Assembly: GCA_965204755.1 (NCBI GenBank)
Contig: OZ242011.1
Coordinates: 32,001 to 96,000, forward strand
DNA length: 64,000 nt
Source of the DNA: Candidatus Marinacidobacterium sp.
GTDB taxonomy: Bacteria; Acidobacteriota; Vicinamibacteria; Marinacidobacterales; Marinacidobacteraceae
Direction: 5' to 3'
This document shows positions 18,411-64,000 of this stretch, piece after piece; within the stretch, counting starts at the first letter, position 1; each line of letters opens with the position of its first letter. Under the pieces are notes generated by a model. The model did not search any database, was not told the DNA's origin, and worked only from the letters and a program-made list of their open reading frames with translations. The position numbers were made by a program, and so were the translations under genes.

Positions 18411-20909
18411 TCAGCGGCTCTCCGGCCCGGGCGGGAACGCGATCTCGACGCTCCAGGAGTCGCCTTCGCCCGGGGCCCACTGTCCGGTGCGCAGACGGGC
18501 GACCGGGAAGTCCGGCAACGGGAGGATGGCGAGGCACCGACCGTCGTCGAGTCGTCCCCGCTCCCCGAACGCGAAGTCCCGGTTCTCGAAGCCGTGTTCC
18601 CGACGCCTTCCCGGCAACGCGTCCGGGGCCTCCGGGTAGAAGTGGGCGAAGAAGCGCTGTTCCGCTTCGCCCGGGGAGCAGGGTTCCCGGAGATAGAGCA
18701 GCGCGCGCCCGTCGAGGTAGAGGTCGAAGGGCGCGCGGGCGGCGGGATCGCCGAAGGCGCCGGACGAGATCGCCCGGTAGGCGGCGAGGTACCGGTCGGC
18801 GTCCAGTCGGCCGGAGGCGGTCCAGGCCTCGCCGGCGCCGCGGCCGAACTCGAAGGGGCGGATCGTCGCGCTTCCGGTCCTCTCGGTCGCGAACTGGCCG
18901 GTCGAGAACCGCGAGACCTCGTAGCGCGGCAGCGGCACGACCGCCGCGCAGGCGCGCTCCCCGGACGCGTCCCGGAGGACGCGCCCGTACGCCCCGAAGA
19001 CGAAATCGCGGTTGTCGAAGCCGTGGCGGCGCCGATCCGGAGGCAGGGACTCCGCCGAGGCCGGGAACAGGTGCAGCCGGAACCTCGCCCGGACATCCTC
19101 TTCCGCGCAGGGGCGGCGGTGATAGACGAGCGCGTCCCGCCCCGGGTAGATCCCGGTGTTCCGGTCGGCGTACACCGCGAACCTTCCTTCGGCGGCCGGT
19201 TGCCCCAGGGCGCCGGAGGCGGCGGCCCGCTCCGCCGAGACGAGCGGGTCGAGGCGGGGGGCCGCGCCGGCGGCCCGGCGGTACACCGCCCCGTCGGCGA
19301 GTTCCGCCACCGTCTGCAGTCCCGGGAGCGTCCGCAGGAGGCCGGCGGCGAACTCGCAGGGCGGAGCCCAAGTGTGGTGGAACACCACGACGAGCCGCCC
19401 CTCGCGCATCCCCGCCAGCCATGCCAGGAGCCGCTCCCGCTCGCTCCGGAACCTCCCTTCGTTCGCGCAGGGCCACGGGTAATGCCTCCCTACCGTCGCC
19501 GTTCCGAGGAAGTCCACGACCGCCGGCTCGTTCGAATACACCGGCCCGGCTACGGCGTTCTCCCGGAGGTAGGCGAGGGTCTCCGAGCGGCTCCGGGCCG
19601 GCCCGGCGTAGCCGAGGTACCGGTCGCCCCGGTTCGCTTCGGCGATCGCCCGGGCGTGCGGCCGCGCCTGTCCCGCTGTCCACAGGCCGAGGACGAGGAA
19701 GAGGAGCGCCGCCGCCGGGCGGAACCGCCGGGCGGGCGGCGGGCCGGCGCGGGGGGGGATCGGCGCCCGCCGCTTCCCGAGGGCGAGGAGCCGGTCCAAC
19801 GAGGTTGCCAGCGCTACGAGCAGCGGCAGGTAGAGGGGGACGAGGTAGCGCGGCGCGACGCCCTCCGCCGCTTCGCCGCGCGCGACGGCGACGACCAGCG
19901 CGGCGGCGTAGGCCAGCGAAAAACCGCCGAACACCGCGACCGGCCGCCAGCCGGAAGCCCCCTCCGCCGTTCCCGGTGAACGCCGGCCCGCGAACGCCGC
20001 GGCGACCAGCGCGCCGGCGGCCAGGCCCGCGAGGTACGGGAGCGCCGCCCCGAGGCCGGGCAAGTCGAAGTCGAACCAGGAGAGGAGGCCGCGTCCGAGC
20101 CAACCCGCGACCCCTCCCGCCGGCGACGAAGCCCCCGCGCCGAGGCGCAGGTCCCCGTCCACCAGCCGGTGGCGGAGGATCCAGAGTCCGAGGGGCCCGA
20201 CGGCGACCGCCGCATGGACCGCCGCCCGCCCGAGCCGCCGGCGGAGCGGCTCGCGGCGGTCGAGCAGGAGGGCGAGGCCGACCACCGCCCCGAGGACCAC
20301 GCCCACGAACCGGGTCAGCAGCGCCAGCGCGCAGAACACGGACGCCGGGAGGAAGGAGGCGGGCCGTCCGGCGGGGGATCCCGGGGCCCGGCGGGCGAGG
20401 AAGTCGTCGCACCGGATCAGCGCCAGGACCGAAAACACCAGGAACGGCGCGTCGCTGAGCGCCCAGGAGGCCGTTTCGGCGAGCGGCAGCGAGAGCGCGG
20501 CGGCGCACGCGGCCCAGCCGGCCAGGAAGCGCGAATCGAAGCGCGAGTCGAGCCGGGCGGCGAGATACCGCGCGACGAGGAAGACCGAGAGCCCGAAGGC
20601 GGCCGCGCCGAGCGGCCCGGCGACCCGCAGGGGGTCGAACGCGCCGAGACTCGCCGCGGCGAGCAGCAGCGGGTAGAGGGGCGGCCAGAAGCCGGTGAAG
20701 ACGCTCCCGTCGAAGTGGGTGAGGCCCTCGCCCGCCAGCAGGTTCCGCGCGGCGGCCAGGTAGTGGAGCGAGTCGAGATCGAGCCGGACCCCGTACTCCG
20801 CCTGCCGCGCGAGGACCAGCGAAACGCCGAGCGCCGCCGCCGCGAGCGGGATGAGCAGGCGGCCGGCGAGGCCCCGCCGAGGAGTCTCCGGCGGCGGGGC
20901 GTCAGTCAT
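18411..20909 (-). CDS. GT-C-like membrane glycosyltransferase with two C-terminal FFLH/GFENRDF domains
   Basis: DSLHYLAAARNLLAGEG, WPPLYPLLLA, LSDAPF, RFVG and PRYLVPLY, then two repeats of the conserved domain. Confidence 0.8.
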   Translation of the reverse strand: MTDAPPPETPRRGLAGRLLIPLAAAALGVSLVLARQAEYGVRLDLDSLHYLAAARNLLAGEGLTHFDGSVFTGFWPPLYPLLLAAASLGAFDPLRVAGPLGAAAFGLSVFLVARYLAARLDSRFDSRFLAGWAACAAALSLPLAETASWALSDAPFLVFSVLALIRCDDFLARRAPGSPAGRPASFLPASVFCALALLTRFVGVVLGAVVGLALLLDRREPLRRRLGRAAVHAAVAVGPLGLWILRHRLVDGDLRLGAGASSPAGGVAGWLGRGLLSWFDFDLPGLGAALPYLAGLAAGALVAAAFAGRRSPGTAEGASGWRPVAVFGGFSLAYAAALVVAVARGEAAEGVAPRYLVPLYLPLLVALATSLDRLLALGKRRAPIPPRAGPPPARRFRPAAALLFLVLGLWTAGQARPHARAIAEANRGDRYLGYAGPARSRSETLAYLRENAVAGPVYSNEPAVVDFLGTATVGRHYPWPCANEGRFRSERERLLAWLAGMREGRLVVVFHHTWAPPCEFAAGLLRTLPGLQTVAELADGAVYRRAAGAAPRLDPLVSAERAAASGALGQPAAEGRFAVYADRNTGIYPGRDALVYHRRPCAEEDVRARFRLHLFPASAESLPPDRRRHGFDNRDFVFGAYGRVLRDASGERACAAVVPLPRYEVSRFSTGQFATERTGSATIRPFEFGRGAGEAWTASGRLDADRYLAAYRAISSGAFGDPAARAPFDLYLDGRALLYLREPCSPGEAEQRFFAHFYPEAPDALPGRRREHGFENRDFAFGERGRLDDGRCLAILPLPDFPVARLRTGQWAPGEGDSWSVEIAFPPGPESR

Positions 20910-20957
20910 GGAACGGCGGGGGGAACGGCGGGGGGAACGACGGGAGGAACGGCGGGG
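20910..20957. repeat. 12-bp tandem repeat x4 (ggaacggcgggg) directly upstream of the ATG at 20909
   Basis: Read directly; one copy is ggaacgacggga. Confidence 0.85.
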
Positions 20958-21065
20958 GAGGCGGCGCGGCGCCCGGTGATTTTCGCCGGCCCCCGCTCCC
21001 CGGCGCGCCGGGCCGGCCCGCGCTCCGGCGGCGCCTCTTCGTCGGGCCCGCCGATCGGGCGGCGC

Positions 21066-23830: not shown

Positions 23831-24669
23831 CGGCCGGCCCCGAGGAGTCGTTCGTGGCACTCGGTCATCGTCGAGAAACGGTAGCCCCGCCCGGCGAGGC
23901 GCTCCCGCATCTCCGGGAAGTCCGCGAACCCGCGCTGGCCCCGGCGCGAAAGGAGTTGCGCCGCCTTCAGCCAGAGCGGGCCCGGGGAGCGGCCGATCCG
24001 GCCGTCCGGGACCAGGTCCACCAGGTGCATCGCGTAGATCAGGAGGTCGGGCAGTCCGGCGGCGGCGTGGAGCCAGGACTCGACCCGCCGCCCCATCAGG
24101 CAGCGGTACGGCTGCGTGAAGGGAATCCCGGGGCGGCGCCAACTCGCCACCGGCAGTTCCGCCAGCGTTTCGTCGAGGACGAACCAGTCCGCGCTGCGGA
24201 AGACCCGCTCCCGGCGCGCGCCGTGCCCGATGCCGGGGAGGATCGAGGAGTCCCAGGCGAAGCCCAGGGAGCGGAGCGCCCCGAAGACCTCCTCGGTGAG
24301 ACCGTAGTTCTTCGCCCGGTAGCCGAGCGGCGCCCTCCCGAGGAACCGGGAATAGACCGAGGCGCTCTCGGCGAGACTCGCGGCGTCGTCGCCCGGCGCC
24401 CGGTGGTCGTAGCAGTGGAGGTGGAGGTCCGCCCCCGACTCGGCCAGGCCCTCCACCAGGTCGGGGCGCTCCCGGAACAGCCGGCCCTCGACGAACGCCG
24501 AGAGCGGCAGGCCGGCGCCCCGGACGGCGGCCACGACTTCGGGCAACCGGTCGAGCGCCTCGGTCCCGTCGCCGCCGTAGTCGTATTCCACATCCATGGT
24601 GAGGACCGCGATCCGGCCCGGGGACCGCCGCCCTTCGATCCTATGGGCCGCCGTCTCGAACTTCGGCAT
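23827..24669 (-). CDS. Polysaccharide deacetylase (CE4, PuuE/DUF3473-like)
   Basis: LTMDVEYD, HLHCYDH, GYRA, WDSSILP, ELPVA and YAMHLVDL. Confidence 0.85.
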   Translation of the reverse strand: MPKFETAAHRIEGRRSPGRIAVLTMDVEYDYGGDGTEALDRLPEVVAAVRGAGLPLSAFVEGRLFRERPDLVEGLAESGADLHLHCYDHRAPGDDAASLAESASVYSRFLGRAPLGYRAKNYGLTEEVFGALRSLGFAWDSSILPGIGHGARRERVFRSADWFVLDETLAELPVASWRRPGIPFTQPYRCLMGRRVESWLHAAAGLPDLLIYAMHLVDLVPDGRIGRSPGPLWLKAAQLLSRRGQRGFADFPEMRERLAGRGYRFSTMTECHERLLGAGR

Positions 24670-25042
24670 CGCCGCGCCTCCGGCGTCCGCGCTCCTCGGC
24701 CAGTTCGTCCTGCAGCAGGGCCACTTCCTGGGTCAGGTTCTTGATGCGGAGCGAGAACTCGCTGACCTTCACCGACAGTTGGAGGATCAGCAGCGCGCAC
24801 ATCAGGATGCCGACCGCGATCACCACGGTTACGGAATCCCCGATCTCCGCCCACTCGGCGAAGGCGGCCACCGGCGCGAGCCACAGCCGGTAGGTCATGA
24901 AGACGAACGCCATCAGGATCCACAGCGCGGCGTAGCGCTCCTGCAGGAGGTCGCGGCGGATGAGTTCGAGCACCGCGGCGAGGAGGGCGAGTCCGACGAG
25001 GAGCGCCGACCAGGAATGGACCGGGGGGATCGCCTCAGCCAT
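24641..25042 (-). CDS. DUF2304 small membrane protein (GacJ-like partner of a polyprenol-P-sugar synthase)
   Basis: ELIRR..LQERYAALW, three TM segments and a C-terminal LSVKVS...IKNLTQEVAL. Coupled to the GT2 gene. Confidence 0.85.
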   Translation of the reverse strand: MAEAIPPVHSWSALLVGLALLAAVLELIRRDLLQERYAALWILMAFVFMTYRLWLAPVAAFAEWAEIGDSVTVVIAVGILMCALLILQLSVKVSEFSLRIKNLTQEVALLQDELAEERGRRRRGDAEVRDGGP

Positions 25043-25784
25043 GGACGCCGCGCTCCTCGACCGGGCGCAGCCGGGAAACGAACAGCGACACCACCACCTT
25101 GAACATGTACCAGAGCGGCGCGAACCCCCGGTGGAGTTGTCCGCCGGTCTCGTTGAAATACATGTACACCGGGACTTCGCCGAGCCGGTAGCCGCTGCGG
25201 AGCAGCGAGAACACCACATCGGCGTCCGGGAAGTCGTAGGGGCGCCGGTCGCGGACCATGAACTCCAGGCAGTCGCGGTTCATGGCCAGGCAGCCGGAAG
25301 TCGGGTCGGTGACCCGGGCGCCGGTCATCAGCCGGAGGAGGAGCCGGAACAGCCGGATGCCGGCCCGCCGCGGGGCGGTCCCCCGGTAGAGCCGGCCCGC
25401 CGGCGGGAACGGTTCGAGCGCCGCCGGCAGGAACCGGGAGCCGATCACCAGGTCCCGGTCGGCGAGGGCGGCCTCCAGCCGGGGGAGGAACCGGGGGTCG
25501 TGCTGGCCGTCGCCGTCGAGTTGCAGCAGGCGCCGGTACCCGCGGGCCAGTGCGTACTTGTAGCCGGTCTGGACGGCGGCGCCGTAGCCGAGCCGAGCCG
25601 GGTGGCGCAGCGTCCGGACGCCGCGGCGGGCGAGGATCGCCGGGGAGTCGTCGGTGGAGGCGTCGTCGATCGCGACGAGGTCGTAACCCTCCCGCCGGGT
25701 GACTTCGAGCAGGGCGGCGAGGAGGCCCGGAAGCCGCGGCGCCTCGTTCCGCACGGGGAAGACGACGAGGACCGGCGGCGTCAT
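25035..25784 (-). CDS. DPM1-like GT2, polyprenol-phosphate glycosyltransferase
   Basis: FPVRNE, IDDASTD, LGYGAAVQTGYKYA, QLDGDGQH, DLVIGSRF and VTDPTSG. Confidence 0.92.
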   Translation of the reverse strand: MTPPVLVVFPVRNEAPRLPGLLAALLEVTRREGYDLVAIDDASTDDSPAILARRGVRTLRHPARLGYGAAVQTGYKYALARGYRRLLQLDGDGQHDPRFLPRLEAALADRDLVIGSRFLPAALEPFPPAGRLYRGTAPRRAGIRLFRLLLRLMTGARVTDPTSGCLAMNRDCLEFMVRDRRPYDFPDADVVFSLLRSGYRLGEVPVYMYFNETGGQLHRGFAPLWYMFKVVVSLFVSRLRPVEERGVHG

Positions 25785-25957: not shown

Positions 25958-28551
25958 TTATTCGGGCAGCGTCAGGGACACGCTCCAGAGGTCGCCGGCG
26001 CCGGGGACCCACTGTCCGGCGCGGAGGCGGCCCGTCCGGGGCGGAAGCCGGGCGACCGCCACGCAGGCCCCGTCCACGGTCGCCCCGCGCGTCTCGAAAC
26101 GGAAGTCGCGGTTCTCGAATCCGGCCGGGCGGCGGGCGTCGGGAAGGCTCACCCGGGCCCGCGGATAGAGGTGGAGGAAGAACCCCGCCTGCGTGTCCTC
26201 CGGCGAACACGAGGGCCGGTGGAAGATGAGGCGCCGGCCAGGGCCGCCTTGGGCGGCGGGGACCTCGTCCAGGTAGAGATCGAAGACCGAGCGGGCGGCG
26301 GGCTCGCCGGAGACGGCGAAGGCGGCGGCGCTTCGCAGGGCCTCCCCGTCGAAGCGCGCCTCCCCTCGCCAGAGCGTCGCGCCTCCCGGAATCCACTGTC
26401 CGGTGCTCAAGTGCGAGACCCGGAACTCCGGCAGCGGAACCATCGCGACGCAGGCGGCGCCGAGGAACACGCCCCGTTCCGGGAACGGGAAGTCCCGGTT
26501 CAGGAACCCGGGCGGCTCGGCGGCCGGGGGAGCGCCTCGCGCTCCGCCCGCAGCGCGTCGGCGTCGAAGTCGCCCCGGTACGGTCGGCCCTCGAAGGCTC
26601 CGGGGAGCGCGTCGGGGTCCTCCGGGTGGAAGTGGAGGAAGAACGGCGCCGGGAGGTCGTCCGTCGGGCAGGGCTCGGCGAAGTACGCGACCTCGTCCCC
26701 CAGGCGGTACAGGTCGAAGTTCGAGCGGAAGAGCGGCGCCCCCGCGGCCCCGGCGGTGATCGCGTCGTACGCCTCCCGGAAGCGGTCGGGGCGCGGCGGC
26801 GCCCCGCGCGCCACTTCGTACGCCGCGCCGTCGGCGAACCGGGCGATCGGCCGGAGGGCGGGCGCCGTCTCGAGGGGCGGCGGAGGGGCGTGGGGGTAGT
26901 AGCCGTTGATCCGGTCTTGTATCCACACGATCCAACTGCCGTCGGGAGGGCCCGGCGCGCCTTCCGGCGCTCCCCCGCCCCGGGCGCCCTCCGGCCCGGC
27001 GTCCGGGCCACGGAGGGCGGGCGGTGCGGGCGGGGCGGCGAACCACTCCTCGAACCGGCGCTGCGGCGAATCCACCTCGCCGCGCCGGATCCGGACCTCC
27101 GGCGCCGGGAAGAACGGCAGGTACCGGTACCGGGCGCGCGGCCCCGTCGCGGAGTAGGCGAGGAGGGGTTCGTTCGAGTAGAGGATGTCCGGCAGCCGGT
27201 CAGGCAGCCGGGCCGACAGGCGGGCCCGGGCCCGGAGGAACGCGAGGATCTCGGAGTTCCGCCAGACCTCCGCCCGGATTCCGCGGTCGAGCCCGGCGTC
27301 CTCCGCGTTCGCGCGGCGGATGGCGCGCGCGCCGGGGGCGGCCTGGCCGAACAACCAGGCCGACAGGAGTCCGGCGAGCAAGCCGGGAAGGAGGCGCCGG
27401 CGGCGCCGGGAGATCCCGCTCCGGGCCCGCTCGGCCCGCAGCAGCCGGTCGCACCCCGCCGCGACCACCACCACGAAGACGACGAAGAGCGGCGTCAGGA
27501 AGCGGACCTTCAGCCCGGAGAGGGTCCCGCCGCCGCCCACGCTCAGCATCACGAACGCGTAGTGCAGGAGGCCGAACGCGCCGAACAGCGCCGCCGGGGA
27601 CCGGACCGGGCGCCCCCCGGAGGCCGCATCGGCGCCCGGCGGCTGGCCGAGGGGAGAACGCGCCGGAGAGCCGCCGGCGAAGAAAGCGGCGAGGCAGGCC
27701 GCGAGGGCGGCCGCGGAGAGCGTGAGGAAGCCGAAGTCGAACTCCAGCCAGCGGGCGAGGTCGCCGAGGCCGTCCCGGAAGAGGTCCCCGAGGTCGTAGT
27801 AACCCGGGCGGCGCCGGTGCCCGGTGAGCATCCCGGTGTGCAAGTGGTTCCGCAGCAGCCAGAGCGCCATCGGCGCCGAGGCCAAGGCCAGGAAGGCGGC
27901 GCACCGCCGGGCGCGCCGGCCGAACGGCGCTCCCTTCGTCAGCAGGAGCGCCCCCGCCGCCGCGGCGACGGCCGCCGCTCCGGGGTATCTCGCGAGCCAG
28001 GCGAGCGCCCCGAATCCGGCGGCGGCGGCCAGGCGCCGGCGGCCGCCGCCCTCCAGGTACCGGTCCGTCGAGACCAGCGTCAGGACGGCGAACAGGATGC
28101 ACAGCGGATCGGAGAGCCCCCGGGACGCCAGGTCGGCGAGCGGCAGCGAGAGCGCCAGCGCCGCCGGCGCCCAGAGCCGGAGGAAACCGGATTCGAGACG
28201 GCGGTCGAGATGGCGCCCGACCACGAAGACGGTGAGCCCCAGCGCCAGGGCGCCGAGCGGCCCGGCGACCGCCTCCGGGTCGAGCCCGAACAGGCCGAAC
28301 GCCGCGAGCGCGAGCGGATACAGCGGCGGCCACAGGGTGGAGGGCGTCCCGTCCACATCCGCGAACCCCTCCCCGGCCAGCAGGTGGCGGGCGATGGCGA
28401 GGTAGTTGATGCCGTCGTGCGACAGCGCCGCGCCGTGCGCCGCCTGGCGGGCGAGCGCGAGCCCGGCCGCCAGCGCGGACAGGGCGGCGATGACCGCGGT
28501 GGAACCGCCGGGGCGCCGGCCGGGTTCGATCCGGAGGGGCGGCCCGCTCAC
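25958..28551 (-). CDS. GT-C-like membrane glycosyltransferase with two FFLH domains; frameshift at G5 26526-26530
   Basis: ORF 26500..28551 (HDGINYLAIARHLLAGEG, WPPLYP, FFLHFHP) continues into the C-part of ORF 25958..27046 (GFLNRDF..LSTGQW..FFLHLYP..GFENRDF) if one base is added to the G5 run. Confidence 0.75.
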
Positions 28552-36747: not shown

Positions 36748-37044
36748 ACGCCCGCGGAACGCTCCGGGGCGTCGCCGGGACGCGAAGAGCGGACACCCTT
36801 CGCTTCCAAGTTCCCGGATGGCGGGAAGGGCCGCGACCGCGACTACGACCACGACCGCCGCGGCGCCTCGGCCGGCGCCCTGGCCGGCGCCGGTCCGCGT
36901 GAAACCGGTCGTGCGAAAATTCTCGTTGGCCGGGGCAGCGACGCCCCCCTCCCCCTCCCTTGTCCCCGGGTCGGACGACCGCGACCGGGAGCGGCGCCGT
37001 CCGCCGCCGGGCCTCGATCCGCGCGCCCCGGAACCATCCCCCGC

Positions 37045-51308: not shown

Positions 51309-52581
51309 ATGGCGAGCGAACCGTCCCGCTCCGGCCCGAGACCCCGCCCCCGAACCCGCGCGCCTTTCCCCGCTCCCCCCATGTTCCGCGGATTCCCCCG
51401 GACCCTCGCCTGGAACGGACTCTGGGCGGGAACGGCCGTCGCTCTCACGCTTCTCGGCGGCGAAGCGTATCTCCGGTTCTCGCGGCCGTTCATGGCCGAG
51501 GTCCGCCCGGAAGTGTTCCTTCCGGAAGTCGGCGCGCTCCTGGCGCCGGACACGGAAGTGCGCTTCACGAATCGTCTCGACTTCTGGACGGTCTCGCGCA
51601 CCAACAGTCTGGGGTTCCTGGACCGGGAACCGCCGAGTCCGGGCCGCGCGGCGGAGACCTGCCACATCGCCTTCGTCGGCGACTCCTTCGTGGAGGCGCC
51701 CCAGGTCCCGATCCCGGACAAGGCGGCGGCGCAACTCGAAGCCATGGCGCGGGAGGCCCTGCCCCGCCTGGACATCACCACCTCGGCGTTCGGTCGATCC
51801 GACACCGGGCAAGTGCGGCAGTTGCCGCTCTGGGACTGCTGCGCCCGGCGCTTCGCCCCCCGACTCCTCGTGCTCGTCTTCCACCCGAACGACCTCTGGG
51901 ACAACCATCCCGTCCTCCGGCGCGTCGTCCGGCCGCACGACCCGCGGTTCCCCGAGTTCCGGCTGACCGAGTCGCCGGACGGCGCGCTGTCCTTGTCGGC
52001 CCCCCCCCCCCCCCCCCCCCCCCCTACGGCGCGCCGATCGATCGGAATGGAGGACAACGCCGGGAGAGGCCGGCCCGAGGGGGAAACCCCGCTCCTGGTT
52101 CGCAGCCTGGGTCTCGGCGAAATGGCGCGCGATCGGGCGGCTCGGAAGACCCGACGATCTGCGGGAACTCATCGAGACCGATTTCCTCCGCCGTCCGCTT
52201 CCGGAAGGCGCCGGGCCCGGGATGCGCCGGCCGGACTTCGCCGAGGTCCTGGAATACACGGCGTTCGCCCTCCGCGCCTTCCGGGATCGAGCCGAGCGGG
52301 ACGGCGCCCGCCCGGTCGTGCTCGCGCACGAGTCCTCGCGGCGCCGGCGAGTGCTGGAACCCTTGCGGAGCATCGCGGGCCCCCTGGGCCTACCGGTGTT
52401 GGACATTGCGGAGACCCTCCTCCGGGATGGCGTCGATTTCAACGCGGTCCGTTTCCCTCACGAGGGCCACTGGAACTCCGCCGGCCATCGCTTCGCCGCC
52501 CGGACGGTGCTCGACTACCTCGAGGGGCATCCGGAAGTATGCGACCGGCCCCGCCCGCCTTCGCGCGGCGAAGGCCGCTGA
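51309..52581 (+). CDS. Membrane-anchored SGNH hydrolase/O-acetyltransferase (AlgJ/AlgX-like); frameshift at C25 52000-52024
   Basis: TM anchor, NSLGFLDRE, GDSFVEA and PNDL. After the tract another frame gives SWFAAW..EGHWNSAGH (ORF 52222..52581). The start may be ATG 51381. Confidence 0.75.
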
Positions 52582-54662: not shown

Positions 54663-56748
54663 GAGCCGCTGCGGGGGCGGATCTCCGCGCTCCAGATCTC
54701 CCCCTCGCCGCTTCGGTATTGGCCGGTGCGCACGCGGGCGATCCCGTAGTCCGGAAGCGGGACCATCGCCAGACAGGCGCGCCTCCCGCCGGGGAGTTCG
54801 AACAGGACGCCCCACCGGAGGAAGTCGAAGTCCAGGTTCTCGAAACGGTGTGGCGCGCGCTTCCCCGGGAGGACCCCCGACGCCTCGGGATAGACATGCA
54901 GGAAGAAACGCTCCTCGCGCAGCGACTCTTCCCGGCAGGAGGCCCGCCGGTAGAACAGCGTCGGCCCCTTCGCGGCGGAAGCGGAACCGCGGTCGAGATA
55001 CAACTCGAAGTCCGCCTCCGCGTCGGGCTCCTTCGTTCGCAGGAACTCGTACGCCTCCCGGTAGCGATGGGAAGGAGGCGCGTATCCCCGGTCCACGGCG
55101 AAGACCGCGCCGTCGGCGAACTCCGCCAGCGGGCGGAGACCGGACGTGGCGAACAACAGGGCCGGAGGTCGGTCCCGGTAGTCCGGCTGCCGGAAATTCG
55201 TGCTCCACACGAACCGGGCGCCCTCGGGTACTCCTTCCAGGAAGGCGGCGAGCCGTTCCTGCGGGAGATCGGCTCCCGCCTCCCTGCCGCCGACCCAAAC
55301 CATGCGCGCCCCGCGAAGGTCCGGCCCCCAGCCGAGATTGGCGAAGACCGGCGACCACAGGTTGGTGTAGACGCGGCGGGACTCCTCGTAGGCCTCGGCC
55401 CGGGCGAACCGCAAGGTCTCCGAACTCGCCCACGGCTCGCCGAGGTAGCCGTTGGCGAAGAGGACCTCCGCGGAGTTGGCCCGCAGGACCGCCCGCCGCT
55501 GGAGACCGATCTGTCCGGCCGTCCACGCCGAAAGAAGCGCCGCCGCCGCGACGGCGCCGACGCGCTCGAAGAGTCTCCGGCCGCGCCCGGCTTCGAGGAG
55601 CGGGTCGAGCGCCGTCGCGAGAGCGAGGACGAGGGGCAGTCTGGCGGGGAACAGGTGCCGGGGCTCCACGCCGTCGAGGCTCTGGCCGAGCATCAACGCC
55701 GTGAAATAGAGACCGATGTACGCGAGCCCGAACCCGCCGAAGAGCAGCATCCAGCGCCTGCGCCCGGCCTGGGTTGCGGCCGGGGACGAAAGCGCGGCGC
55801 CGTGAGTCGCTCCGGTCCGGCGCCGAAGCAGGAGCGCCGCCGGCGGAAGGAGCGCCCCGAGGGCGAGCAGGGCGGCGGAACTGCCGTCGAATCGGGCCCA
55901 GGCGAAGACGGCGCTCCCGATGTCGCCCAGGATCACCGCGGCGTCGTAGTCCGGGTCGCCGTGGCGTCCGGTCAGGACGCCGCTGACGAAGTAGTTCCGG
56001 GCGAACCAGACGGCGTTCGGCAGGCCGGCGATCGCGGTGTAGGCCGCCGCGTTCCGGAGTTTCTCCCGGCCCCGCGCCCCCCGGCGCAACAGGAGGATCG
56101 CGCCGGCGAAGACCAGCAGGACGACGCCGAAGTACCGGGTCGAAAACGCCAGACCGGCGAACACCGCGGACCAGGCCAGGCAAGCGCCCCCCCCCCCCCC
56201 CCCCCCCTCCCCCCCTCCAGGAACCGGCCCAGCAGGACCAGGGCGAGGAGCGTGAACAGCGCGAAGGGCGGCTCCGAGACTCCGCGCCACGCCCACTCGG
56301 CGAACGGAAGGGACAGCGCCGCCGCGACCGGCGTCCACAGGCGGAGAAACCTCGACCGGAGATGGCGGCCCGCGTACCGGCCGACGACGAAGACGGTGAG
56401 CGCGAAGAGCGCGGCGCCCGGCAGGTGGATCCCGGAGAGGGGGTCCAGTCCCGTAAGACGCGCCGCGGCCAGGAGGAGCGGATAGAGCGGGGGCCAGGAC
56501 ACATAGGGCGCGACTCCTTGCGAGGAGCGCCCTCTCGCGAAGCCTTCGCCGTCGAGCAGGTTGTCGGCGACGCGGAGGTAATCGACCGATTTGAGGTCCA
56601 GCCCCGGCCCGTAGGTCGCGCCCCTCGCCAGCACCAGCGCGAAAGCGAGCGCGGCCGCCGCGACGACGAACACGCCGTATCGACCCGGCAGGGATCGGTT
56701 CCGGCGAGGCGGGGACGCCCCCTCCCCCCGACGAAACCGCGAGGTCAT
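54659..56748 (-). CDS. GT-C-like membrane protein + one FFLH domain, tandem copy B; frameshift at C21 56187-56207
   Basis: N-part is ORF 55972..56748 and C-part is ORF 54659..56791, joined at the tract. Confidence 0.78.
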
Positions 56749-56912
56749 CCGCGCGCCCGATCCTCTTCCACGGCGCCCGCAATTCCATCACGAACCACGA
56801 GATCGGGAGTCGCGGGCCTCCTCCGGCTCGCGGAGGGAGTGACAGGGCCTCGAGTACTCCCGCGACGCCTCCGCGGCCCCCCGGCGCGCCCCTCCGAACT
56901 TACTCCACCGGC

Positions 56913-57010: not shown

Positions 57011-59094
57011 CTAAGGGCGGATCTCCGCGCTCCAGGTCTCCCCCTCGCCGCTTCGGTATCGGCCGGTGCGCACGCGGGCGATCCCGTAGTCCGGAAGCGG
57101 GACCGTCGCCAGGCAGGCGCGCCCCCCGCCTTCGAGTTCGAACAGGACGCCCCACCGGAAGAAGTCGAAGTCCAGGTTCTCGAAACGGTGCGGCGCGCGC
57201 TCCGCCGGGAGGACCCCCGGCGCCTCGGGATAGACATGCAGGAAGAAACGCTCCTCGCGCAGCGACTCTTCCCGGCAGGAGGCCCGCCGGTAGAACAGCA
57301 TCGGCCCCTTCGCGGCGGAAACGGAACCGCGGTCGAAGTACACCTCGAAGTCCGCCTCCGCGTCCGGCTCCTTCGTTCGCAGGAACTCGTAGGCCTCCCG
57401 GTAGCGATGCGAAGGCGGCGCGTATCCCTGGTCCACGGCGAAGACCGCGCCGTCGGCGAACTCCGCCAGCGGACGGAGACCGGGCGTGGCGAACAACACC
57501 GCCGGGGGCCCGGCCCGGTAACGGGGCCGCAGGAAGTCCGTGCTCCACATCAGCCGGGCGCCCTCGGGTACTCCTTCCAGGAAGGCGGCGAGCCGTTCCT
57601 GCGGGAGATCGTCTCCCGGCGCCTCTCGACCGACCCAAACCCCGCGGATCGCGCGAAGGTCCGGCCCCCCGCCGAGATGGGCCAGGACCGGCGTCCACAA
57701 GTTGGTGTAGACGCGGCGGGACTCCCCGTAAGAGTCGGCCCGGGCGAACCGCAAGGTCTCCGAACTCGCCCACGGCTCGCCGAGGTAGCCGTTGGTGAAG
57801 AGGACCTCCGCGGAGTTGGCCCGCGCGACCGCCCGCCGCTGGAGACCGACTTGCCCGACCGCCCACGCCGAGAGGAGCGCCGCCATCGCGACGGCGCCGA
57901 CGCGCGCGAAGAGTCTCCTGCCGCTCCCGACTTCGAGCAGCGGGTCGAGCGCGGTCGCGAGAGCGAGGACGAGGGGCAACCTGGCGGGAAACAGGTGCCG
58001 GGGTTCGACGCCGTGCTCGATCTGGCCGAGCATCAACGCCGCGAAATAGAAACCGATGAACGCGACCGCGAAGCCGCCGAAGAGAAGCCCCGCCGCGCCG
58101 GTTTCCTCGGGGACGCGAGGCCGATGCCCCGAAGCCCCCCCCCCCCCCCCCCCAATCCGCCGAGGCCGAGGGCTCGGCGGCCGGCGCCCGTCCGGGTCGA
58201 ACGCAGGAGCGCCGCCAACGGAAGCAGGGCCCCGAGGGCGAGCAGCGCGCCGGAACTGGCGTCGAATCGAGCCCAGGAGAGGATCGCGCTCCCGATGTCG
58301 CTCAAGATCTCGGCGGCGGCGTAGTCCGTAGAGGGAGGGCGCCCGGCCCAACTGCCGCTGACGAAGTAGTTCCTCGCGAACCAGGGGAGCATCGGCAGAC
58401 CGGCGATCGCGGTGTAGGCCGCCGCGTTCCGGAGTTTCTCCCGGCCCCGCGCCCCCCGGCGCATCAGGAGAAGCGCGCCGGCGAGGAGCAACAGGACCGC
58501 GCCGACGAACCGGGTCGAAAACGCCAAACCGGCGAAGACCGCGGACCACGCCAGGCAAGCGCGCTTCCCCTCCTCCAGGAACCGGTCCAGCAGGATCAGG
58601 GCGAGGAGCGTGAACAGTACGAAGAACGGCTCCGAGAGCCCGCGCCACGCCCATTCGGCGAACGGAAGGGACAGCGCCGCCGCCACCGGCGTCCACAGGC
58701 GGAGGAAACTCGACCGGAGATGACGCGCCGCGTACCGGCCGACGACGAAGACGGTGAGCGCGAAGAAGACGGCCCCCACCAGGTGGATCCCGGAGAAGAG
58801 ATCGAGTCCGCCGAGCCGCGCCGCCGAAAGGAGGAGCGGATAGAACGGAGGGCCGGCATAGGTCTGGACTCTTCGCGAAGAGGGCCAATGCGTGAAGCCT
58901 TCGCCGTCCAGCAGGTTGTCGGTGACGCGGAGGTAGTTGACCGAGTGGATGTCCAGCGCCGGCCCGTAGGTGGCGCTCCTCGCCAGCACGAGCGCGAACG
59001 CGAGCGCGGCCAGGGCGACGACGAACGCGCCGTACGGACTCGACGGAAACCGGTTGCGGCGAGGCCCGGACGCCCCCCTCCGGACTATCTCCAC
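57011..59094 (-). CDS. GT-C-like membrane protein + one FFLH domain, tandem copy C; frameshift at C19 58135-58153
   Basis: N-part is ORF 58033..59094; C-part is the tail of ORF 57011..59974. Confidence 0.78.
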
Positions 59095-59100
59095 AAGCGG

Positions 59101-61179
59101 CTAAGGGTGGATCTCCGCGCTCCAGGTCTCGCCGTCGCCGCTTCGGTATTGGCCGGTGCGCACGCGGGCGATGCCGTAGTCCGGAAGCGGGACCATCGCC
59201 AGGCAGGCGCGACCGCCGCCTGCGAGTTCGAACCGGACGCCCCACCGGAAGAAGTCGAAGTCCAGGTTCTCGAAACCGCGCGGCGCGCGTTCCGCCGGGA
59301 GGGCCCCCGGCGCCTCGGGATAGACATGCAGGAAAAACCGATCGCGCAGCGACTCTTCCGGGCAGGAGGCCCGTCGGTAGAACAGCATCGGCCCCTTCGC
59401 GGCGGAAACGGAACCGCGGTCGAAAACCACCTCGAAGTCCGCCTCGAAGTCCGCCTCCAAGTCCGCCTCCGGGGCCGGCTCCTTCGTTCCCAGGAACTCG
59501 TACGCCTCCCGGTAGCGATGCGAAGGAGGCGCGTATCCCCGATCCACCGCGAAGACCGCGCCGTCGGCGAACTCCGCCAGCGGGCGGAGCCCGGGCGTGG
59601 CGAACAACACCGCCGGGGGCCCGTCCCGGTATCGGGGCTGCAGGAAGTCCGTGCTCCACACCACCCGGGCGCCCTCGGGAATCCCCTCCAGGAGGGCGGC
59701 GAGCCGTTCCTGCGCCAAGTCGCTTCCCGGCGCCTCCGCGGGGAACCAGCGCCCCATCGCGCGAAGGTCCGGCCGCCCGCCGAGATGGGGATAGACCGGC
59801 ATCCACAGGTTGGTGTAGACGCGGTCCGACTCCCCGTAAGCGCCGGCCCGGAGGAACCGCATCGTTTCCGAACTCGCCCACGGTTCGCCCAGGTAGCCGT
59901 TGGCGAAGAGGACCTCCGCGGAGTTGGCCCGCGCGATCGCCGCCCGCTGGAAACCGACTTGGCCCGCCGCCCATACCGAAAGGATCACCGCCGCCCCGAC
60001 GGCGCCGACGCGTTCGAAGAGCCTCCGGCCGCTCCCGCCTTCGAGCAGCGGGTCGAGCGCCGTCGCGAGAGCGAGGACGAGGGGCAGTCTGGCGGGAAAC
60101 AGGTGCCGGGGTTCCACGCCGTCCGCGCTCTGCTCGAGCATCAACGCCGCGAAATAGAAACCGATATACGCGAGCGCGAAGCCGCCGAAGACCGCCGCCC
60201 GGCGCCTACGCCCGGACGGAGCGGCGGCCGGGGACGAAGGGCCGGCGCCGCGCGCCGCCCCCGCCCGGATCGGAAGCAGGAGCGCCGCCAACGGAAGCAG
60301 CGCCCCGAGGGCGAGCAGCGCGCCGGAACCGCTGTCGAATCGAAACCAGGCGAAGACCGCGCTCCCGATGTCGCTCAAGATCTCGGCGGACTCGTAGTCC
60401 GGCGCCCGATAGCGTCGCGTCAGGGCGCCGGTGACGAAGTAGTTCCGGGCGAACCAGAGGGTCATCGGCAAACCGGCGATCGCGATGTAGGCCGCCGCGT
60501 TCCGGAGTCCCTCCCGGCCCCGCGCCCCCCGGCGCAGCAGGAGGAGCGCGCCGGCGAAGATCAACAGGACGGCACCGAAGTACCGGGTCGAAAACGCCAG
60601 CCCGGCGAACACCGCGGACCACGCCAGGCAAGCGCGCTTCCCGTCCTCCACAAACCTGCCCAGCAGGATCAGGGCGAGGAGCGTGAACAGTACGAAGGGC
60701 GGCTCCGAAACCCCGCGCCACGCCCATTCGGCGAACGGAAGGGACAGCGCCGCCGCGACCGGCGTCCACACTCGAAGGAACCGCGACCGGAGATGACGCC
60801 CCGCGTACCCTCCGACGACGAAGACGGTGAGCGCGAAGAAGGCGGCGCCCGACAGGTGGATACCGGAAAGGAGTTCGAGCCCGAGAAGATGCGCGGCGGC
60901 CAGGAGGAGCGGATAGAGCGGCGGCCAGGACACATACGGTTCGGCGCCTCGCGCGGAGTGCCGGCGCGTGAAGCCTTCGCCGTCCAACAAGTTGTCGGCG
61001 ACGCGGATGTAGTTGACCGAGTCGGTGTCGAGCGCCGGCCCGTAGGTCGCGCCCCTCGCCACCACCAGCGCGAAGGCGAGCGCGGCCAGGGCGGCGGCGA
61101 ACACGCCGTACCGGCCCCGCCCGTACCGGTCGGGGCGAAGCGGGGACGCTCCCCGGTCTTCGACGGACGAGCGAACCAC
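59101..61179 (-). CDS. GT-C-like membrane protein + one FFLH domain, tandem copy D (intact)
   Basis: 692 aa with DSVNYIRVADNLLDGEG, WPPLYP, VSEPPF, RYFG and FFLHVYP..GFENLDF..VRTGQY. Confidence 0.82.
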   Translation of the reverse strand: MVRSSVEDRGASPLRPDRYGRGRYGVFAAALAALAFALVVARGATYGPALDTDSVNYIRVADNLLDGEGFTRRHSARGAEPYVSWPPLYPLLLAAAHLLGLELLSGIHLSGAAFFALTVFVVGGYAGRHLRSRFLRVWTPVAAALSLPFAEWAWRGVSEPPFVLFTLLALILLGRFVEDGKRACLAWSAVFAGLAFSTRYFGAVLLIFAGALLLLRRGARGREGLRNAAAYIAIAGLPMTLWFARNYFVTGALTRRYRAPDYESAEILSDIGSAVFAWFRFDSGSGALLALGALLPLAALLLPIRAGAARGAGPSSPAAAPSGRRRRAAVFGGFALAYIGFYFAALMLEQSADGVEPRHLFPARLPLVLALATALDPLLEGGSGRRLFERVGAVGAAVILSVWAAGQVGFQRAAIARANSAEVLFANGYLGEPWASSETMRFLRAGAYGESDRVYTNLWMPVYPHLGGRPDLRAMGRWFPAEAPGSDLAQERLAALLEGIPEGARVVWSTDFLQPRYRDGPPAVLFATPGLRPLAEFADGAVFAVDRGYAPPSHRYREAYEFLGTKEPAPEADLEADFEADFEVVFDRGSVSAAKGPMLFYRRASCPEESLRDRFFLHVYPEAPGALPAERAPRGFENLDFDFFRWGVRFELAGGGRACLAMVPLPDYGIARVRTGQYRSGDGETWSAEIHP

Positions 61180-61180
61180 G

Positions 61181-62473
61181 CTACGGCGAGTCGCCCGCCC
61201 CCGCCGGCTCGCAGAGGTATGGGCGGGACTTCAAGTATTCCCACAGCGCCTCCGCCACCCACCGATGCCCTTGCGGGGTCCAGTGCTCGTCGCGCCGAAA
61301 GCCGGCGTCACGCGGGTCTCCTCCTGCGGAGTCGATGATGTACCGGTATTGGTCGACGACCGGTATCCCGCGCTCTTCCGCCAAGGTCCTCATCGCGTAC
61401 TCCCGCGCGAGTCCGAAGTAGGTGTTCAGGAAGAGCACCAGGCGCGACCCGTCCCGAGCCGCGCGCGCCGAGAACTCGTCCAGCGCGAAAGCCGTCAGTT
61501 CGAGGGCCTCCGCGTAGGCGGGCGCCAGTCCGCTTCCCGCCCGCCGGGCGCTGACGAGTCCGTACTTGACGAGAGTGTCCCCCAGGTCCATACCCGGAAG
61601 CCTCCAACCGGACAGCGACGCGGTCCCTTCGGAGAGCCGGCGCCAACGGTCGCGCCTCTCCCATCGGTCCTGGTGCTCCCGGAGGTCGTTCGCGATCCGG
61701 TTCCTCCACAGGAGATTCCACAGGAAGGTTCCGGTAACTCCCCTCGACCATCGCCTCGATGCGTCGAGCCGCGCCCGCACCGCCGGCGAGGCCCCGTCGG
61801 GAAGCCGCAGTTCGATCCGTCCGTCGGCGCCTCGTTCGGCCATCGCATGCCACGCGGTGCGCAGCGCGCCCGAGGAAACCTCGGTCAGGACCCCGGAGTT
61901 GCCGGAATAGTCGTTCGGAGTGGCCATCAGCACGAGCACCTTCGGCCGCATGGGTCGGGCGTAAGTGTCGTAGAGGGGAATCTGGGAGGTTTGCGAGGTG
62001 GCGCTGATCCCGAACGCCGAGGTCGTGATGTCGAGGTCCGGCCGCGCCCGCGCCGCCAGGGCTTCGAGTTGGACCTGCGCCTTGTCCGGCGCCTCGACCT
62101 CCCGCGCTTCGACGAAGGAGTCCCCGACCAGCGCGATGTGGCAACTCGACGCGGCCCGTTCCGGGGACACCGGTTCCCGGTCGAGGAAGCCGAGGCGGTT
62201 CGTTCTCGAGATCGTCGAGAAGTCGAAGAGGTTCGTGTGCCGCACTTCCCCATGGGGTTCCAGCATGACGCCCACTCCCGGAACGAACCGCAGCGGATAC
62301 CGACTGGCCACGAACGGGTGCGACCGGCGCAACCACGCCTCGCCGGCGAGCGCGAGCGCGCACGCGCCGACGAGCGTGAACAACAGGTTCACGCCGAAGA
62401 CACGCAGGAATCGGCGGCCCGGTCCGCCGCGCGCTCGCGCCTCTTCGACGCGCCTTCGGGCCCGGCGGCGCAT
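61181..62473 (-). CDS. Membrane-anchored SGNH hydrolase/O-acetyltransferase (AlgJ/AlgX-like)
   Basis: TM anchor, NRLGFLDRE, GDSFVEA, PNDY and DEHWTPQGH. Likely ATG at 62473. Confidence 0.8.
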   Translation of the reverse strand: MRRRARRRVEEARARGGPGRRFLRVFGVNLLFTLVGACALALAGEAWLRRSHPFVASRYPLRFVPGVGVMLEPHGEVRHTNLFDFSTISRTNRLGFLDREPVSPERAASSCHIALVGDSFVEAREVEAPDKAQVQLEALAARARPDLDITTSAFGISATSQTSQIPLYDTYARPMRPKVLVLMATPNDYSGNSGVLTEVSSGALRTAWHAMAERGADGRIELRLPDGASPAVRARLDASRRWSRGVTGTFLWNLLWRNRIANDLREHQDRWERRDRWRRLSEGTASLSGWRLPGMDLGDTLVKYGLVSARRAGSGLAPAYAEALELTAFALDEFSARAARDGSRLVLFLNTYFGLAREYAMRTLAEERGIPVVDQYRYIIDSAGGDPRDAGFRRDEHWTPQGHRWVAEALWEYLKSRPYLCEPAGAGDSP

Positions 62474-62475
62474 CT

Positions 62476-63795
62476 CTACGACGAATCGCCGACCTCCGCC
62501 GGCGCGCACGGCGACGGAAGTTCCTTCAGGTACTCCCAAAGCGCTTCCGCGGCCCACCGGTGCCCCCGCGGATGCCAATGCGAATCGCGCCTGAACGACG
62601 CATCATGCCAGTTCCCCTTCGCCTCACCGATGTGCCGGTACAGGTCCACGACCGGAATCCCGCGCTCTTCCGCCAAGTCCTTCATCGCCGTCTCCCGCGC
62701 GGCGCCGAAGTATTGGGACAGGAAGAGCACCAGGCGCGATCCGTCTCGAGCGGCGCGCGCGGCGAACTCGTCGAGCGCGAACGCCGTCAGTTCGAGGGCC
62801 TCGGCATACGCGGGCGCCGGTTCGCCTTCCGCCCGCCGGGCGTTGAGGAGACCGTACTTGACCGAGTCCCCGTACAGCCTCACCCCCGGAGGCCTCCAGC
62901 CGGACAGCGACTCCGTCTCGCCGGACAGACGCCGCCACCGTTCGCGCGCCCGCCATCCTTCCCTCGACTCCCGGAAACCCCGGGCGATCCGATCCCTCTC
63001 CAGGCGGCTCCACAGGAAGGAGGCGCGGCGCAGTCCCGTCTCGCGTCGGCGCGCCGCGCGCAACTGCTCCCGCACCGCCGGAGAGGCGCCGTCGGGGCGC
63101 CGGAGTCCGATCCGTCCGTCGGGCCCCCGGTCGGCCCTCGCATACGAATCGGCCAGCGGCGGAACGGTCGAGATCCCGGTCAGGACGCCCGAGTTGCCCA
63201 TGTAGTCGTTCGGCGTGGCCTGCAGCACGACCACTTTCGGCCGCAGGGGCCGGACGAAGGCATCGTAGATCGGGATCTGTTGGACTTGGGCGGTGGCGGT
63301 CAGCCCGAACGCCGAAACCGTGAGGTCGAGGTCCGGCCGCTCCCGCGCCGCCAGCGCCTCCAATCGGACCTGCGCCTTGTCGGCCATCACGACCTCCCGC
63401 GCCTCCACCATGGAGTCCCCGACCAGCGCGAGGTGGCAACCCGCGGCGGCCCGCCGCGGCGATATCGGCTCCCGGTCGAGGAAGCCGAGGCGGTTCGCCC
63501 GCGAGATCGTCCAGTAGTCGAAGAGGTTCGTGTGCCGCACCTCCCCGTGCGGCTCCAGCAGGAGGCCCGCTCCCGGAACGAACCGCAGCGGCAGCCGATT
63601 GGCGGCGAACGGAAGTGACCGGCGCAGCCACGCCTCGCCGGCGACGCCGACCGCGGATACGCCGACGAACGAGAGCAACAGGTTGACGCCGAGGACGCGC
63701 CGGAGTCGGCGGCGGGCGCCGGTGCGACCGAGCGGACGAGGGACAGCGGCGCACTCACCTTCGAGCCCCCCCCCCCCCCTACCAGTCAGCGCCAT
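62476..63795 (-). CDS. Membrane-anchored SGNH hydrolase/O-acetyltransferase (AlgJ/AlgX-like), paralog
   Basis: GDSMVEA, PNDY and DSHWHPRGH. A C14 tract at 63766-63779 lies near the start. Confidence 0.8.
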   Translation of the reverse strand: MALTGRGGGGLEGECAAVPRPLGRTGARRRLRRVLGVNLLLSFVGVSAVGVAGEAWLRRSLPFAANRLPLRFVPGAGLLLEPHGEVRHTNLFDYWTISRANRLGFLDREPISPRRAAAGCHLALVGDSMVEAREVVMADKAQVRLEALAARERPDLDLTVSAFGLTATAQVQQIPIYDAFVRPLRPKVVVLQATPNDYMGNSGVLTGISTVPPLADSYARADRGPDGRIGLRRPDGASPAVREQLRAARRRETGLRRASFLWSRLERDRIARGFRESREGWRARERWRRLSGETESLSGWRPPGVRLYGDSVKYGLLNARRAEGEPAPAYAEALELTAFALDEFAARAARDGSRLVLFLSQYFGAARETAMKDLAEERGIPVVDLYRHIGEAKGNWHDASFRRDSHWHPRGHRWAAEALWEYLKELPSPCAPAEVGDSS

Positions 63796-63807
63796 GCCCG
63801 GCGCCCG

Positions 63808-64000
63808 CTATTCGGCGACGCGGATCTCGGTCCTCCACAGACCCTCTCCGCCGATGATGTATTGACCGGTCGCGATGCGCGACACGGGATGCTCCGGAAG
63901 CGCCACCCGCGCCACGCACCTCCCGTCGAAACGCCAACCCTCGTCCGCGAACCAGAAGTCGTGGTTGGCGAAGCCGTACCGCGCGCGGTCCTCCGGCAGG
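63808..64000 (-). CDS. C-terminus of a further FFLH-domain protein (runs off the window)
   Basis: Not in the ORF track. Manual translation from 63999: LPEDRARYGFANHDFWFADEGWRFDGRCVARVALPEHPVSRIATGQYIIGGEGLWRTEIRVAE*. Confidence 0.8.
   Translation of the reverse strand, partial: LPEDRARYGFANHDFWFADEGWRFDGRCVARVALPEHPVSRIATGQYIIGGEGLWRTEIRVAE

Follow-up and report, generated by a model that had tools for sequence, protein, structure and literature searches.

Why should membrane-enzyme genes of an uncultured acidobacterium end, one after another, in the same small domain that belongs to no named family? The question is raised by a stretch of 64,000 nucleotides (nt) from Candidatus Marinacidobacterium sp. 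(assembly GCA_965204755.1, contig OZ242011.1, positions 32,001 to 96,000; hereafter referred to as the window, in whose coordinates features are given), in which genes resembling GT-C glycosyltransferases carry at their C-terminal ends one or two copies of a domain with two conserved cysteines (the two-Cys domain; the genes are referred to as its carriers). Here we report a computational analysis of this domain, its carriers and the long poly-G/C tracts that lie in and beside them. We conclude that the domain represents a new family within a familiar class of accessory modules; of note are the size of the set of paralogues, the range of phyla over which that set extends and the homopolymer tracts that are candidate switches. 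We lean, with modest confidence, towards a reading in which extracytoplasmic enzymes that decorate a surface glycan share a tail, similar to a carbohydrate-binding module (CBM), that holds the acceptor, while the tracts switch individual genes.

Copies of the domain and their carriers

The window has a G+C content of 75% (71–77%), which makes most of the listed long open reading frames (ORFs) spurious, and genes were therefore called by third-position GC. A hidden Markov model (HMM) of the domain, started from a single copy and refined in repeated searches of the window translated in six frames, yielded 17 matches, on the minus strand without exception. They correspond to 16 copies in 12 genes, comprising 14 full-length copies, one copy split by a frameshift into two half-matches and one cut at the window end. 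The E-values of the full-length copies range from 3e-27 to 3e-45, so these matches are not due to chance. An alignment of the 14 copies contains two invariant cysteines, with 29–56% identity to the first copy. The initial annotation had counted 16 copies in 11 genes and one partial gene, had assigned the genes to two membrane scaffolds and had proposed a consensus with two cysteines. We reproduced all three: eight carriers have the D-S-x-x-Y and WPPLYP motifs (PMT_2/ArnT-like), three have YNPPY and FFLPKMHDR (GT87-like) and one is partial; the motifs occur on the minus strand only, between 18.4 and 64 kb; and the consensus motifs and both cysteines are present in the alignment. Its description of the 11 genes as complete was too generous, as three of them (25958–28551, 54659–56790 and 57011–59094) are frame-interrupted in the assembly. 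The observation is confirmed, and its interpretation is partly supported by the results described below.

Four of the eight PMT_2-type carriers, all on the minus strand, have two copies: 18411–20909 (832 aa; copies at 18870–19199 and 18441–18746; PMT 18.7 bits, below the cut-off), 25958–28551 (terminal copy at 25976–26302), 31955–34498 (847 aa; 32417–32731 and 32030–32350; identified by Pfam and the HMM) and 41981–~44632 (42506–42853 and 42137–42442; start uncertain). In 25958–28551, the inner copy is the split one, with halves at 26360–26536 and 26590–26736; the frameshift lies between 26536 and 26590, where there is no homopolymer, and reflects either a pseudogene or an assembly error. The other four have one copy each: 52597–54645 (52609–52956; PMT_2 33.6 bits, cut-off 26.1), 54659–~56790 (54680–55027; frame broken at a run of 21 G, G21), 57011–~59094 (57020–57367; frame broken at G19; N-terminal half 58033–59094 with PMT_2 26.7 bits) and 59101–61179 (692 aa; 59110–59448; without a tract; PMT_2 28.2 bits). 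In 59101–61179, a 24-nt tandem duplication relative to a paralogue, at about 59445–59493, repeats the peptide E-A-D-L/F directly before the domain. The three GT87-like carriers, also on the minus strand, are 28548–32045 (copy at 28617–28907; start codon uncertain), 44577–47900 (44628–44942; 1107 aa) and 47992–51165 (48034–48327; 1057 aa; recognized by motifs and the HMM). The partial twelfth carrier (63811–64000, minus strand) is a 3′ end with a partial copy at 63823–63999, and its whole-genome form is an 848-aa ORF with two copies. In all four two-copy genes (4/4), the terminal copy outscores the inner one with the window HMM, which suggests that the last copy is the working one.

A nameless β-sandwich domain

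Pfam-A and NCBIfam searches of the carriers gave no match over the two-Cys domain, and a Pfam search with 98 single copies at E ≤ 1 found no consistent family, the commonest match being a low-complexity one in 5 of the 98. A profile of the domain searched against PDB sequences reached a best E-value of 0.45, and an ESM Atlas look-up returned only scores of 0.82–0.83 to unrelated fungal clusters, without a lead. The domain is thus outside the named families in the databases searched, as initially annotated. Our literature search yielded no publication that deals with the domain, or with tracts of this kind in the taxa concerned; the domain being nameless, its absence from print is not thereby established.

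To describe its fold, we supplied AlphaFold2 with 98 copies, drawn from the window, from elsewhere in the same genome and from a sister genome. The resulting model (predicted local distance difference test (pLDDT) score 96.4, predicted template modelling score 0.88) begins with a short helix at its N-terminus and continues as a sandwich of strands. Foldseek against the PDB returned no match at E ≤ 1e-3, and its best matches (E-values of 1.6e-2 to 0.14) were cytokine-receptor FN3 domains, superoxide reductase and CBM56. VIA-align against 48,161 chains gave Z-scores from 6.6 down to about 5.2 for FN3, immunoglobulin (Ig)-like and CBM9 domains, with root-mean-square deviations of 2.5–4.6 over 71–109 residues and 4–15% identity. 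The model thus places the domain in the Ig/FN3-like β-sandwich class, without one specific relative standing out. FN3, Ig-like, CBM9 and CBM56 domains share this fold class, whereas the N-terminal helix and the cysteine pair are particular to the two-Cys family.

The conserved positions of the domain are G14, P16, F22, Y33, R35, C38, F47, L49, H50, N70, F73, F75, C86, A88, L92-P93, T102-G103-Q104 and W113. Across phyla, the polar ones are kept at 89% (R35), 78% (H50), 78% (N70) and 82–93% (T102-G103-Q104). Among 594 copies in the fetched family proteins, the cysteine pair is present in 579 (the first cysteine is absent in 2 and gapped in 13) and 575 have exactly two cysteines, so that each domain is probably pinned by one disulfide. 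The fold model and the partner families described below together indicate a non-catalytic β-sandwich appended to carbohydrate-active enzymes.

The PMT_2-type scaffold and its topology

We modelled one of the eight PMT_2-type genes in full length, using the 692-aa product of 59101–61179 and 52 aligned homologues (pLDDT 83.9); the other seven align to it at 35–79% identity. Foldseek against the PDB found 30 matches at E ≤ 1e-3, or 28 after redundancy filtering, and all of them are GT-C enzymes, or complexes holding one, by entry title. ArnT (5ezm) is the best match (E = 1.6e-7; TM-score 0.48 by query and 0.59 by target), followed by AftD, Pmt4, OST/STT3, EmbC, AftA, ALG9/12, AglB, PglB and AftB, with about 15% identity to the structural matches. 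The PMT_2-type scaffold is accordingly predicted to adopt a GT-C fold, in line with the resemblance proposed in the initial annotation. At the level of sequence families, the Pfam PMT_2 cut-off (26.1) is exceeded in three of the eight genes (33.6, 28.2 and 26.7 bits) and the other five are below it or have no match. We take ArnT and the PMT_2/PMT families to be GT-C enzymes of the GT83/GT39 type in CAZy numbering. The carriers resemble ArnT (5ezm and 5f15) and PMT_2/PMT in having an acidic residue conserved in the first outer loop, and differ from ArnT in the α/β region and the two-Cys domain that follow their last helix.

The model contains 11 long helices, within the 7–13 typical of GT-C enzymes, and a loop (residues 43 to 102) with two short helices and a hairpin. 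Of the 52 aligned rows, 38 retain D53, which lies in this first outer loop, and 49 retain R358. Arginine and lysine account for 19 of 90 residues in the loops assigned inside and 12 of 138 in those assigned outside; by the helix count and the positive-inside rule, the tail that follows helix 11 is therefore placed outside the cytoplasm. This agrees with the extracytoplasmic site initially proposed for the C-terminal part, and the signal-peptide-like starts of the arylsulfotransferase (ASST) genes in the window also fit such a placement, as do the lone N-terminal hydrophobic anchor of soluble proteins fused to the domain and the retention of the cysteine pair.

The GT87-like carriers

The three GT87-like genes are less readily assigned. 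Against a Pfam GT87 (PF09594) cut-off of 25, two of them score 22.4 bits (28548–32045) and 20.1 bits (44577–47900) over the whole model length, and the third has no Pfam match; a homologue from the family search, P0049, scores 21.5 bits. A five-sequence profile matched a single PDB entry, ALG6 (6snh; E = 0.021), and a single-sequence PDB search with the N-terminus gave no relevant match. The proteins are 1050–1165 aa long, with a second polytopic module at about residues 430 to 850 (29346–30608, 45321–46613 and 48736–49908, minus strand), and this module shares homology with the N-terminal part of the carriers in a different cluster (P0020 and its relatives). A profile of the second module found nothing in the PDB, the best E-value being 0.088 for an RND transporter, and Pfam gave a PMT match in 1 of its 11 members. 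By sequence, the GT87-like genes look like two-module fusions.

One tail on many enzymes

A profile of the 14 window copies, searched against 1.84 billion cluster representatives (clusters at 50% identity), found 2222 representatives at E ≤ 1e-3, of which 583 also reach E ≤ 1e-30; a single protein contains as many as 10 matched stretches. We analysed domain positions and partners in the best 150 of these 2222 proteins, a set biased towards many copies. Among them, a protein carries 2–10 copies, and in 148 of 150 no more than 30 aa separate the end of the last copy from the C-terminus (median 4). An N-terminal part of at least 300 aa is present in 109, of which 104 have at least four hydrophobic segments, and the N-terminal parts sort into 15 sequence clusters.

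Pfam searches of 71 of these 150 proteins named PMT_2/PMT, Wzy_C (P0001, 54.1 bits), GtrII (P0100, 35.8 bits) and arylsulfotransferase (P0107, 81.4 bits) as partners, in addition to GT87 and DUF2079 below their cut-offs and weak GDSL/AlgX matches (P0104, P0013 and P0111); many of the 71 had no Pfam match or low-complexity matches only. P0107, from another genome, is an arylsulfotransferase fused to three copies of the domain, and the soluble partner proteins P0104, P0111 and P0010 have one N-terminal hydrophobic anchor each. Judged by these family assignments, the named partners are enzymes that act on glycans outside the cytoplasm. The presence of the same tail on sulfo- and acyl-transfer enzymes and on a Wzy_C protein points to recognition of a shared polymer. 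These fusions to enzymes other than GT-C, together with the poly-G/C tracts, extend the initial annotation.

An acceptor-holding tail would have precedents. EmbC is described as a GT-C enzyme with a C-terminal carbohydrate-binding module (PMC3044687), and the CBMs of EmbC and AftD are reported to bind the acceptor (PMC11127046). In the GT-C enzyme ORF12 (GT136) of Citrobacter youngae O1, an Ig-like C-terminal CBM is reported to bind the unmodified O-polysaccharide backbone (PMC11127046). Like these proteins, and like EmbA and EmbB, the PMT_2-type carriers are predicted to consist of a polytopic GT-C core followed by one or more extracytoplasmic C-terminal β-sandwich modules, and EmbC and AftD are themselves among the Foldseek matches of our full-length model. 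In contrast to the modules of EmbC, AftD and ORF12, the two-Cys domain has no sequence relation to any Pfam family or PDB chain, has a fixed cysteine pair, forms arrays of up to 10 and also occurs on non-GT-C enzymes (ASST, SGNH and Wzy_C). The initial annotation was therefore right to expect a β-sandwich and overstated its case in speaking of an undescribed surface-glycosylation system, as acceptor-holding C-terminal Ig-like CBMs have been described on EmbC (PMC3044687), AftD and ORF12 (PMC11127046).

The same architecture could arise if the domains bound each other, or a common envelope protein (S-layer, outer-membrane or scaffold), and thereby gathered glycan-modifying enzymes into one extracytoplasmic machine. 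Such docking would suit a single module that is attached both to soluble enzymes and to 15 or more unrelated clusters of N-terminal sequence and that comes in tandem arrays, and Ig/FN3 folds often mediate protein contacts. We nevertheless consider it unlikely: no partner protein is known, the fusion partners have only their action on glycans in common, and the C-terminal sandwiches of the solved or described GT-C cases bind carbohydrate (PMC11127046). A homodimer prediction with two domain copies scored 0.02, which gives no support and counts neither way.

The tail could instead be passive, serving as a stalk that determines how far across the periplasm the enzyme can reach, or as a stabilizer of the exported part, without a specific ligand. 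The copy number, which ranges from 1 to 10, and the greater degeneracy of inner copies relative to terminal ones would both be expected of a spacer, and the CBM of ORF12, the closest precedent, reportedly appeared dispensable (PMC11127046). However, the polar and aromatic positions show strong conservation from phylum to phylum, as listed above for R35, H50, N70 and T102-G103-Q104; the terminal copies are the best conserved; and a stalk at the extreme C-terminus, past the catalytic part, would carry nothing at its far end. We therefore regard a passive role as quite improbable.

Poly-G/C tracts at surface and restriction-modification genes

The 3.98-Mb genome contains 42 homopolymer runs of at least 9 nt, all of G or C. 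Their lengths are bimodal, with 5 runs of 9 nt, 0 of 10–13 nt and 37 of 14–34 nt. Eight of the 37 long tracts are in the window, which represents 1.6% of the genome and would be expected to hold about 0.6 by length, and all eight lie in or at genes of the sugar-modification cluster (one of them a gene of unknown family).

Four of these tracts belong to other genes of the cluster, on the plus strand. A C27 tract (7653–7679), read in frame as poly-Pro, lies inside the methyltransferase-domain ORF 6296–8491. Two G21 tracts, in the third and fourth ASST genes (38820–38840 and 40558–40578), lie directly behind the predicted signal peptide, with the start out of frame with the body. A C25 tract (52000–52024) marks the point at which the coding frame changes in the gene or gene pair of unknown family at 51309–52581. 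The remaining four are on the minus strand. The G18 tract of carrier 52597–54645 (54629–54646) stands behind a GTG that corresponds by homology to the start codon of 59101–61179 and is out of frame with the gene body. Two tracts coincide with the frameshifts of two paralogues, whose sites were located by alignment to an intact paralogue: G21 (56187–56207) at the frame break of 54659–56790, a 17-nt G insertion relative to 52597–54645, and G19 (58135–58153) at that of 57011–59094, within a 27-nt insertion. Finally, a G14 tract (63766–63779) occupies codons 6–10 of the second SGNH gene, in frame.

Beyond the window, two more tracts are in carriers, and the others are at DNA methylases, ResIII helicases, a Type ISP enzyme, TonB-dependent receptors, SGNH genes and a TupA-like ATP-grasp gene, between a UDP-glucose dehydrogenase and a wzx-like flippase gene, and at a few unrelated genes. 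Carriers of the sister genome also contain tracts. In two loci (L040 and L041) of a gammaproteobacterial metagenome-assembled genome (MAG) with 51% G+C, all four carriers have a C15–C28 tract about 12 codons after the start (L040:386-405, L040:2843-2870, L041:367-381 and L041:2901-2925), one in frame and three out of frame if the lengths in the assembly are taken as given.

Long homopolymers are thus over-represented inside, or at the 5′ end of, surface and restriction-modification reading frames, as is characteristic of simple-sequence-repeat contingency loci. In Campylobacter jejuni, poly-G/C tracts are reported in the reading frames of capsule and lipooligosaccharide modification and of restriction-modification (PMC4965091 and PMC8437040). 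The same gene classes carry tracts here, and the differences from C. jejuni are that the tracts are far longer (14–34 nt), that they occur in a 72% G+C uncultured acidobacterium that is not a known pathogen and that switching is a candidate property. The distribution of the tracts points to a candidate contingency-locus set in an uncultured acidobacterium and to phase-variable diversification of its surface glycan.

A more trivial account is that the broken genes reflect decay into pseudogenes or errors in the assembly and that the tracts serve no regulatory function. In its favour, frameshifts affect three of the 11 genes, the one at 26536–26590 lies where there is no tract, and long-read assemblies are error-prone in homopolymer length. 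Set against this, the run lengths leave a gap at 10–13 nt, the tracts are placed directly behind start codons or signal peptides and recur at classic phase-variable gene classes, and they recur independently in the 51% G+C gammaproteobacterial MAG. Short-read contigs of four runs from four studies cover the stretch and mostly stop at the tracts, and one contig, from run X3, spans the 58135 tract and contains an additional C (at 58134). As the tracts are seen in contigs of four studies, they are not an artefact of one assembly. We consider decay or error without regulation a rather improbable explanation.

Distribution of the family

In the genome to which the window belongs, the domain has 47 matches in 25 frames, which correspond to 24 genes and 46 copies. 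Genome-wide, the only frames that match a scaffold profile of either type without also carrying the domain are frameshifted halves of carriers. Among 41 relatives, three genomes match: that of the window, the sister genome (65 matches) and one of another genus of the same taxonomic family, with a single match. This last match (G005:C1:2655200-2655457; loci L003 and L023), in an open frame of 141 aa, consists of one copy and may represent the domain standing alone. Among 401 genomes of the phylum, four match at E ≤ 1e-5.

A scan of one genome per species found 32 loci in 16 MAG records, whose titles name Candidatus Marinacidobacterium (sister), Vicinamibacterales, Dehalococcoidia, Tepidiformaceae, Spirochaetia, Gammaproteobacteria, Pseudomonadales and Binatia. 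The loci in these other genomes have the same architecture, often as runs of adjacent paralogues, at 51–77% G+C. A FastTree phylogeny of 113 copies shows large clades confined to one lineage each (30 and 22 copies), as well as 27 maximal clades that each hold a single phylum, which suggests an old spread between phyla followed by local expansion, with weak deep nodes in an alignment of 117 columns. Near-identical DNA occurs in public sequencing runs labelled sponge metagenome or marine metagenome, which contain 36–68% of the sampled words of the stretch, and none of the listed runs that share it is an RNA run.

Neighbouring genes

About 170 bp downstream of carrier 25958–28551 lies a pair of minus-strand genes, of which one encodes a 249-aa GT2 protein (25035–25784; Glycos_transf_2, 64.4 bits) and the other, overlapping it, a small DUF2304 membrane protein (24641–25219; 60.3 bits). 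They may be the maker of the polyprenyl-phosphate-sugar donor and its membrane partner. The DUF2304 family is without an assigned role. On the plus strand, four paralogous ASST genes stand in tandem (35164–42023, by Pfam), three with a weak, below-cut-off Cadherin-like match at the N-terminus, and the gene or gene pair of unknown family (51309–52581) was recognized by its coding frame. Two AlgX-like SGNH genes, identified by Pfam, occupy 61181–63795 on the minus strand. The methyltransferase-domain ORF (6296–8491, plus strand) also rests on a Pfam match. The window further contains an ABC exporter, a fused oxidoreductase/epimerase, GT2 and GT4 enzymes, methyltransferases, two GNAT-type proteins, deacetylases and a sulfotransferase. 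Its predicted gene content is that of a region for glycan synthesis and decoration.

A model for the carrier battery

In the model that we favour, the window would be part of an enzyme battery that decorates a surface glycan outside the cytoplasm. The GT-C paralogues, predicted to have 11 transmembrane helices and an N-terminus inside, would take a sugar from a polyprenyl-phosphate donor, probably charged by the product of the neighbouring GT2 gene (25035–25784), and pass it to a surface polysaccharide or glycoconjugate at the outer face of the inner membrane. The two-Cys domain would be an exported, non-catalytic, CBM-like module that holds the acceptor polymer, or its common feature, beside the catalytic part. 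Because the module is also fused to O-antigen ligase/polymerase-like, GtrII, ASST and SGNH enzymes, it would recognize a shared polymer and not one acceptor position. Slippage in the poly-G/C tracts of the paralogues and of the neighbouring sulfo- and acyl-transfer genes would toggle single enzymes on and off, yielding a population with mixed surface glycan variants.

This model has a parallel in the GtrA/GtrB/Gtr* systems of Salmonella and Shigella, which are described as three-component systems for periplasmic glycan modification (PMC11127046), and in Salmonella gtr operons, whose phase variation is reported to be epigenetic and dependent on DNA methylation (PMC2909390). Common to both would be a GT2 polyprenyl-phosphate-sugar synthase and a GT-C enzyme that modifies a finished polymer outside the cytoplasm, and Gtr expression is switched stochastically; moreover, the representative P0100 combines a GtrII module with the two-Cys domain. 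Unlike the Gtr systems, the candidate switch here is a homopolymer tract in, or at the start of, the coding region, and one genome has 24 carriers as opposed to one or few.

Several points weigh against the model. The CBM of ORF12, its closest precedent, is the one that reportedly appeared dispensable (PMC11127046), and the disulfide, glycan binding by the domain, the donor and switching are all inferred. The fold matches of the domain model are generic: Z-scores of up to 6.6 are within the range of unrelated sandwiches, as the VIA tool itself remarks, and the fold therefore cannot tell whether the domain is a CBM, a spacer or an Ig domain that binds protein. The conserved F47, F73, F75, W113 and A88 are probably core rather than surface residues, and arrays of up to 10 copies resemble stalks more than typical CBMs. 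With respect to switching, homopolymer lengths in the assembly may be wrong, which would make the on and off states unreliable; the two ASST tracts share their length and frame offset and could reflect a systematic length error; variation in tract length rests on a single contig; and the adjacency of tracts and carriers in the loci of other genomes is partly by construction, as these loci were chosen for holding the domain.

A bolder extension of the acceptor-holding model, which we advance as a tentative possibility, is that the two-Cys module is a new carbohydrate-binding family and that, together with the hypermutable tracts, it marks a cross-phylum tool-kit for randomizing the surface glycans of uncultured, probably host-associated bacteria. 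If true, this would be a symbiont counterpart of the contingency loci of pathogens, with dozens of independently switchable GT-C enzymes, sulfotransferases and acyltransferases aimed at one polymer by means of this module. The domain itself is common in metagenomes (2222 clusters), nameless and confidently folded, and could be filed as a new family, which would annotate thousands of tails now called hypothetical. Should it bind glycans, it would offer a way to study the surface polymer in uncultured acidobacteria and in the other phyla in which the domain occurs. With 24 carriers and 46 copies in a genome of about 4 Mb, the switch-like tracts would also explain the broken look of such genes in MAGs, and would extend the biology of contingency loci from a few pathogens to environmental and symbiotic bacteria.

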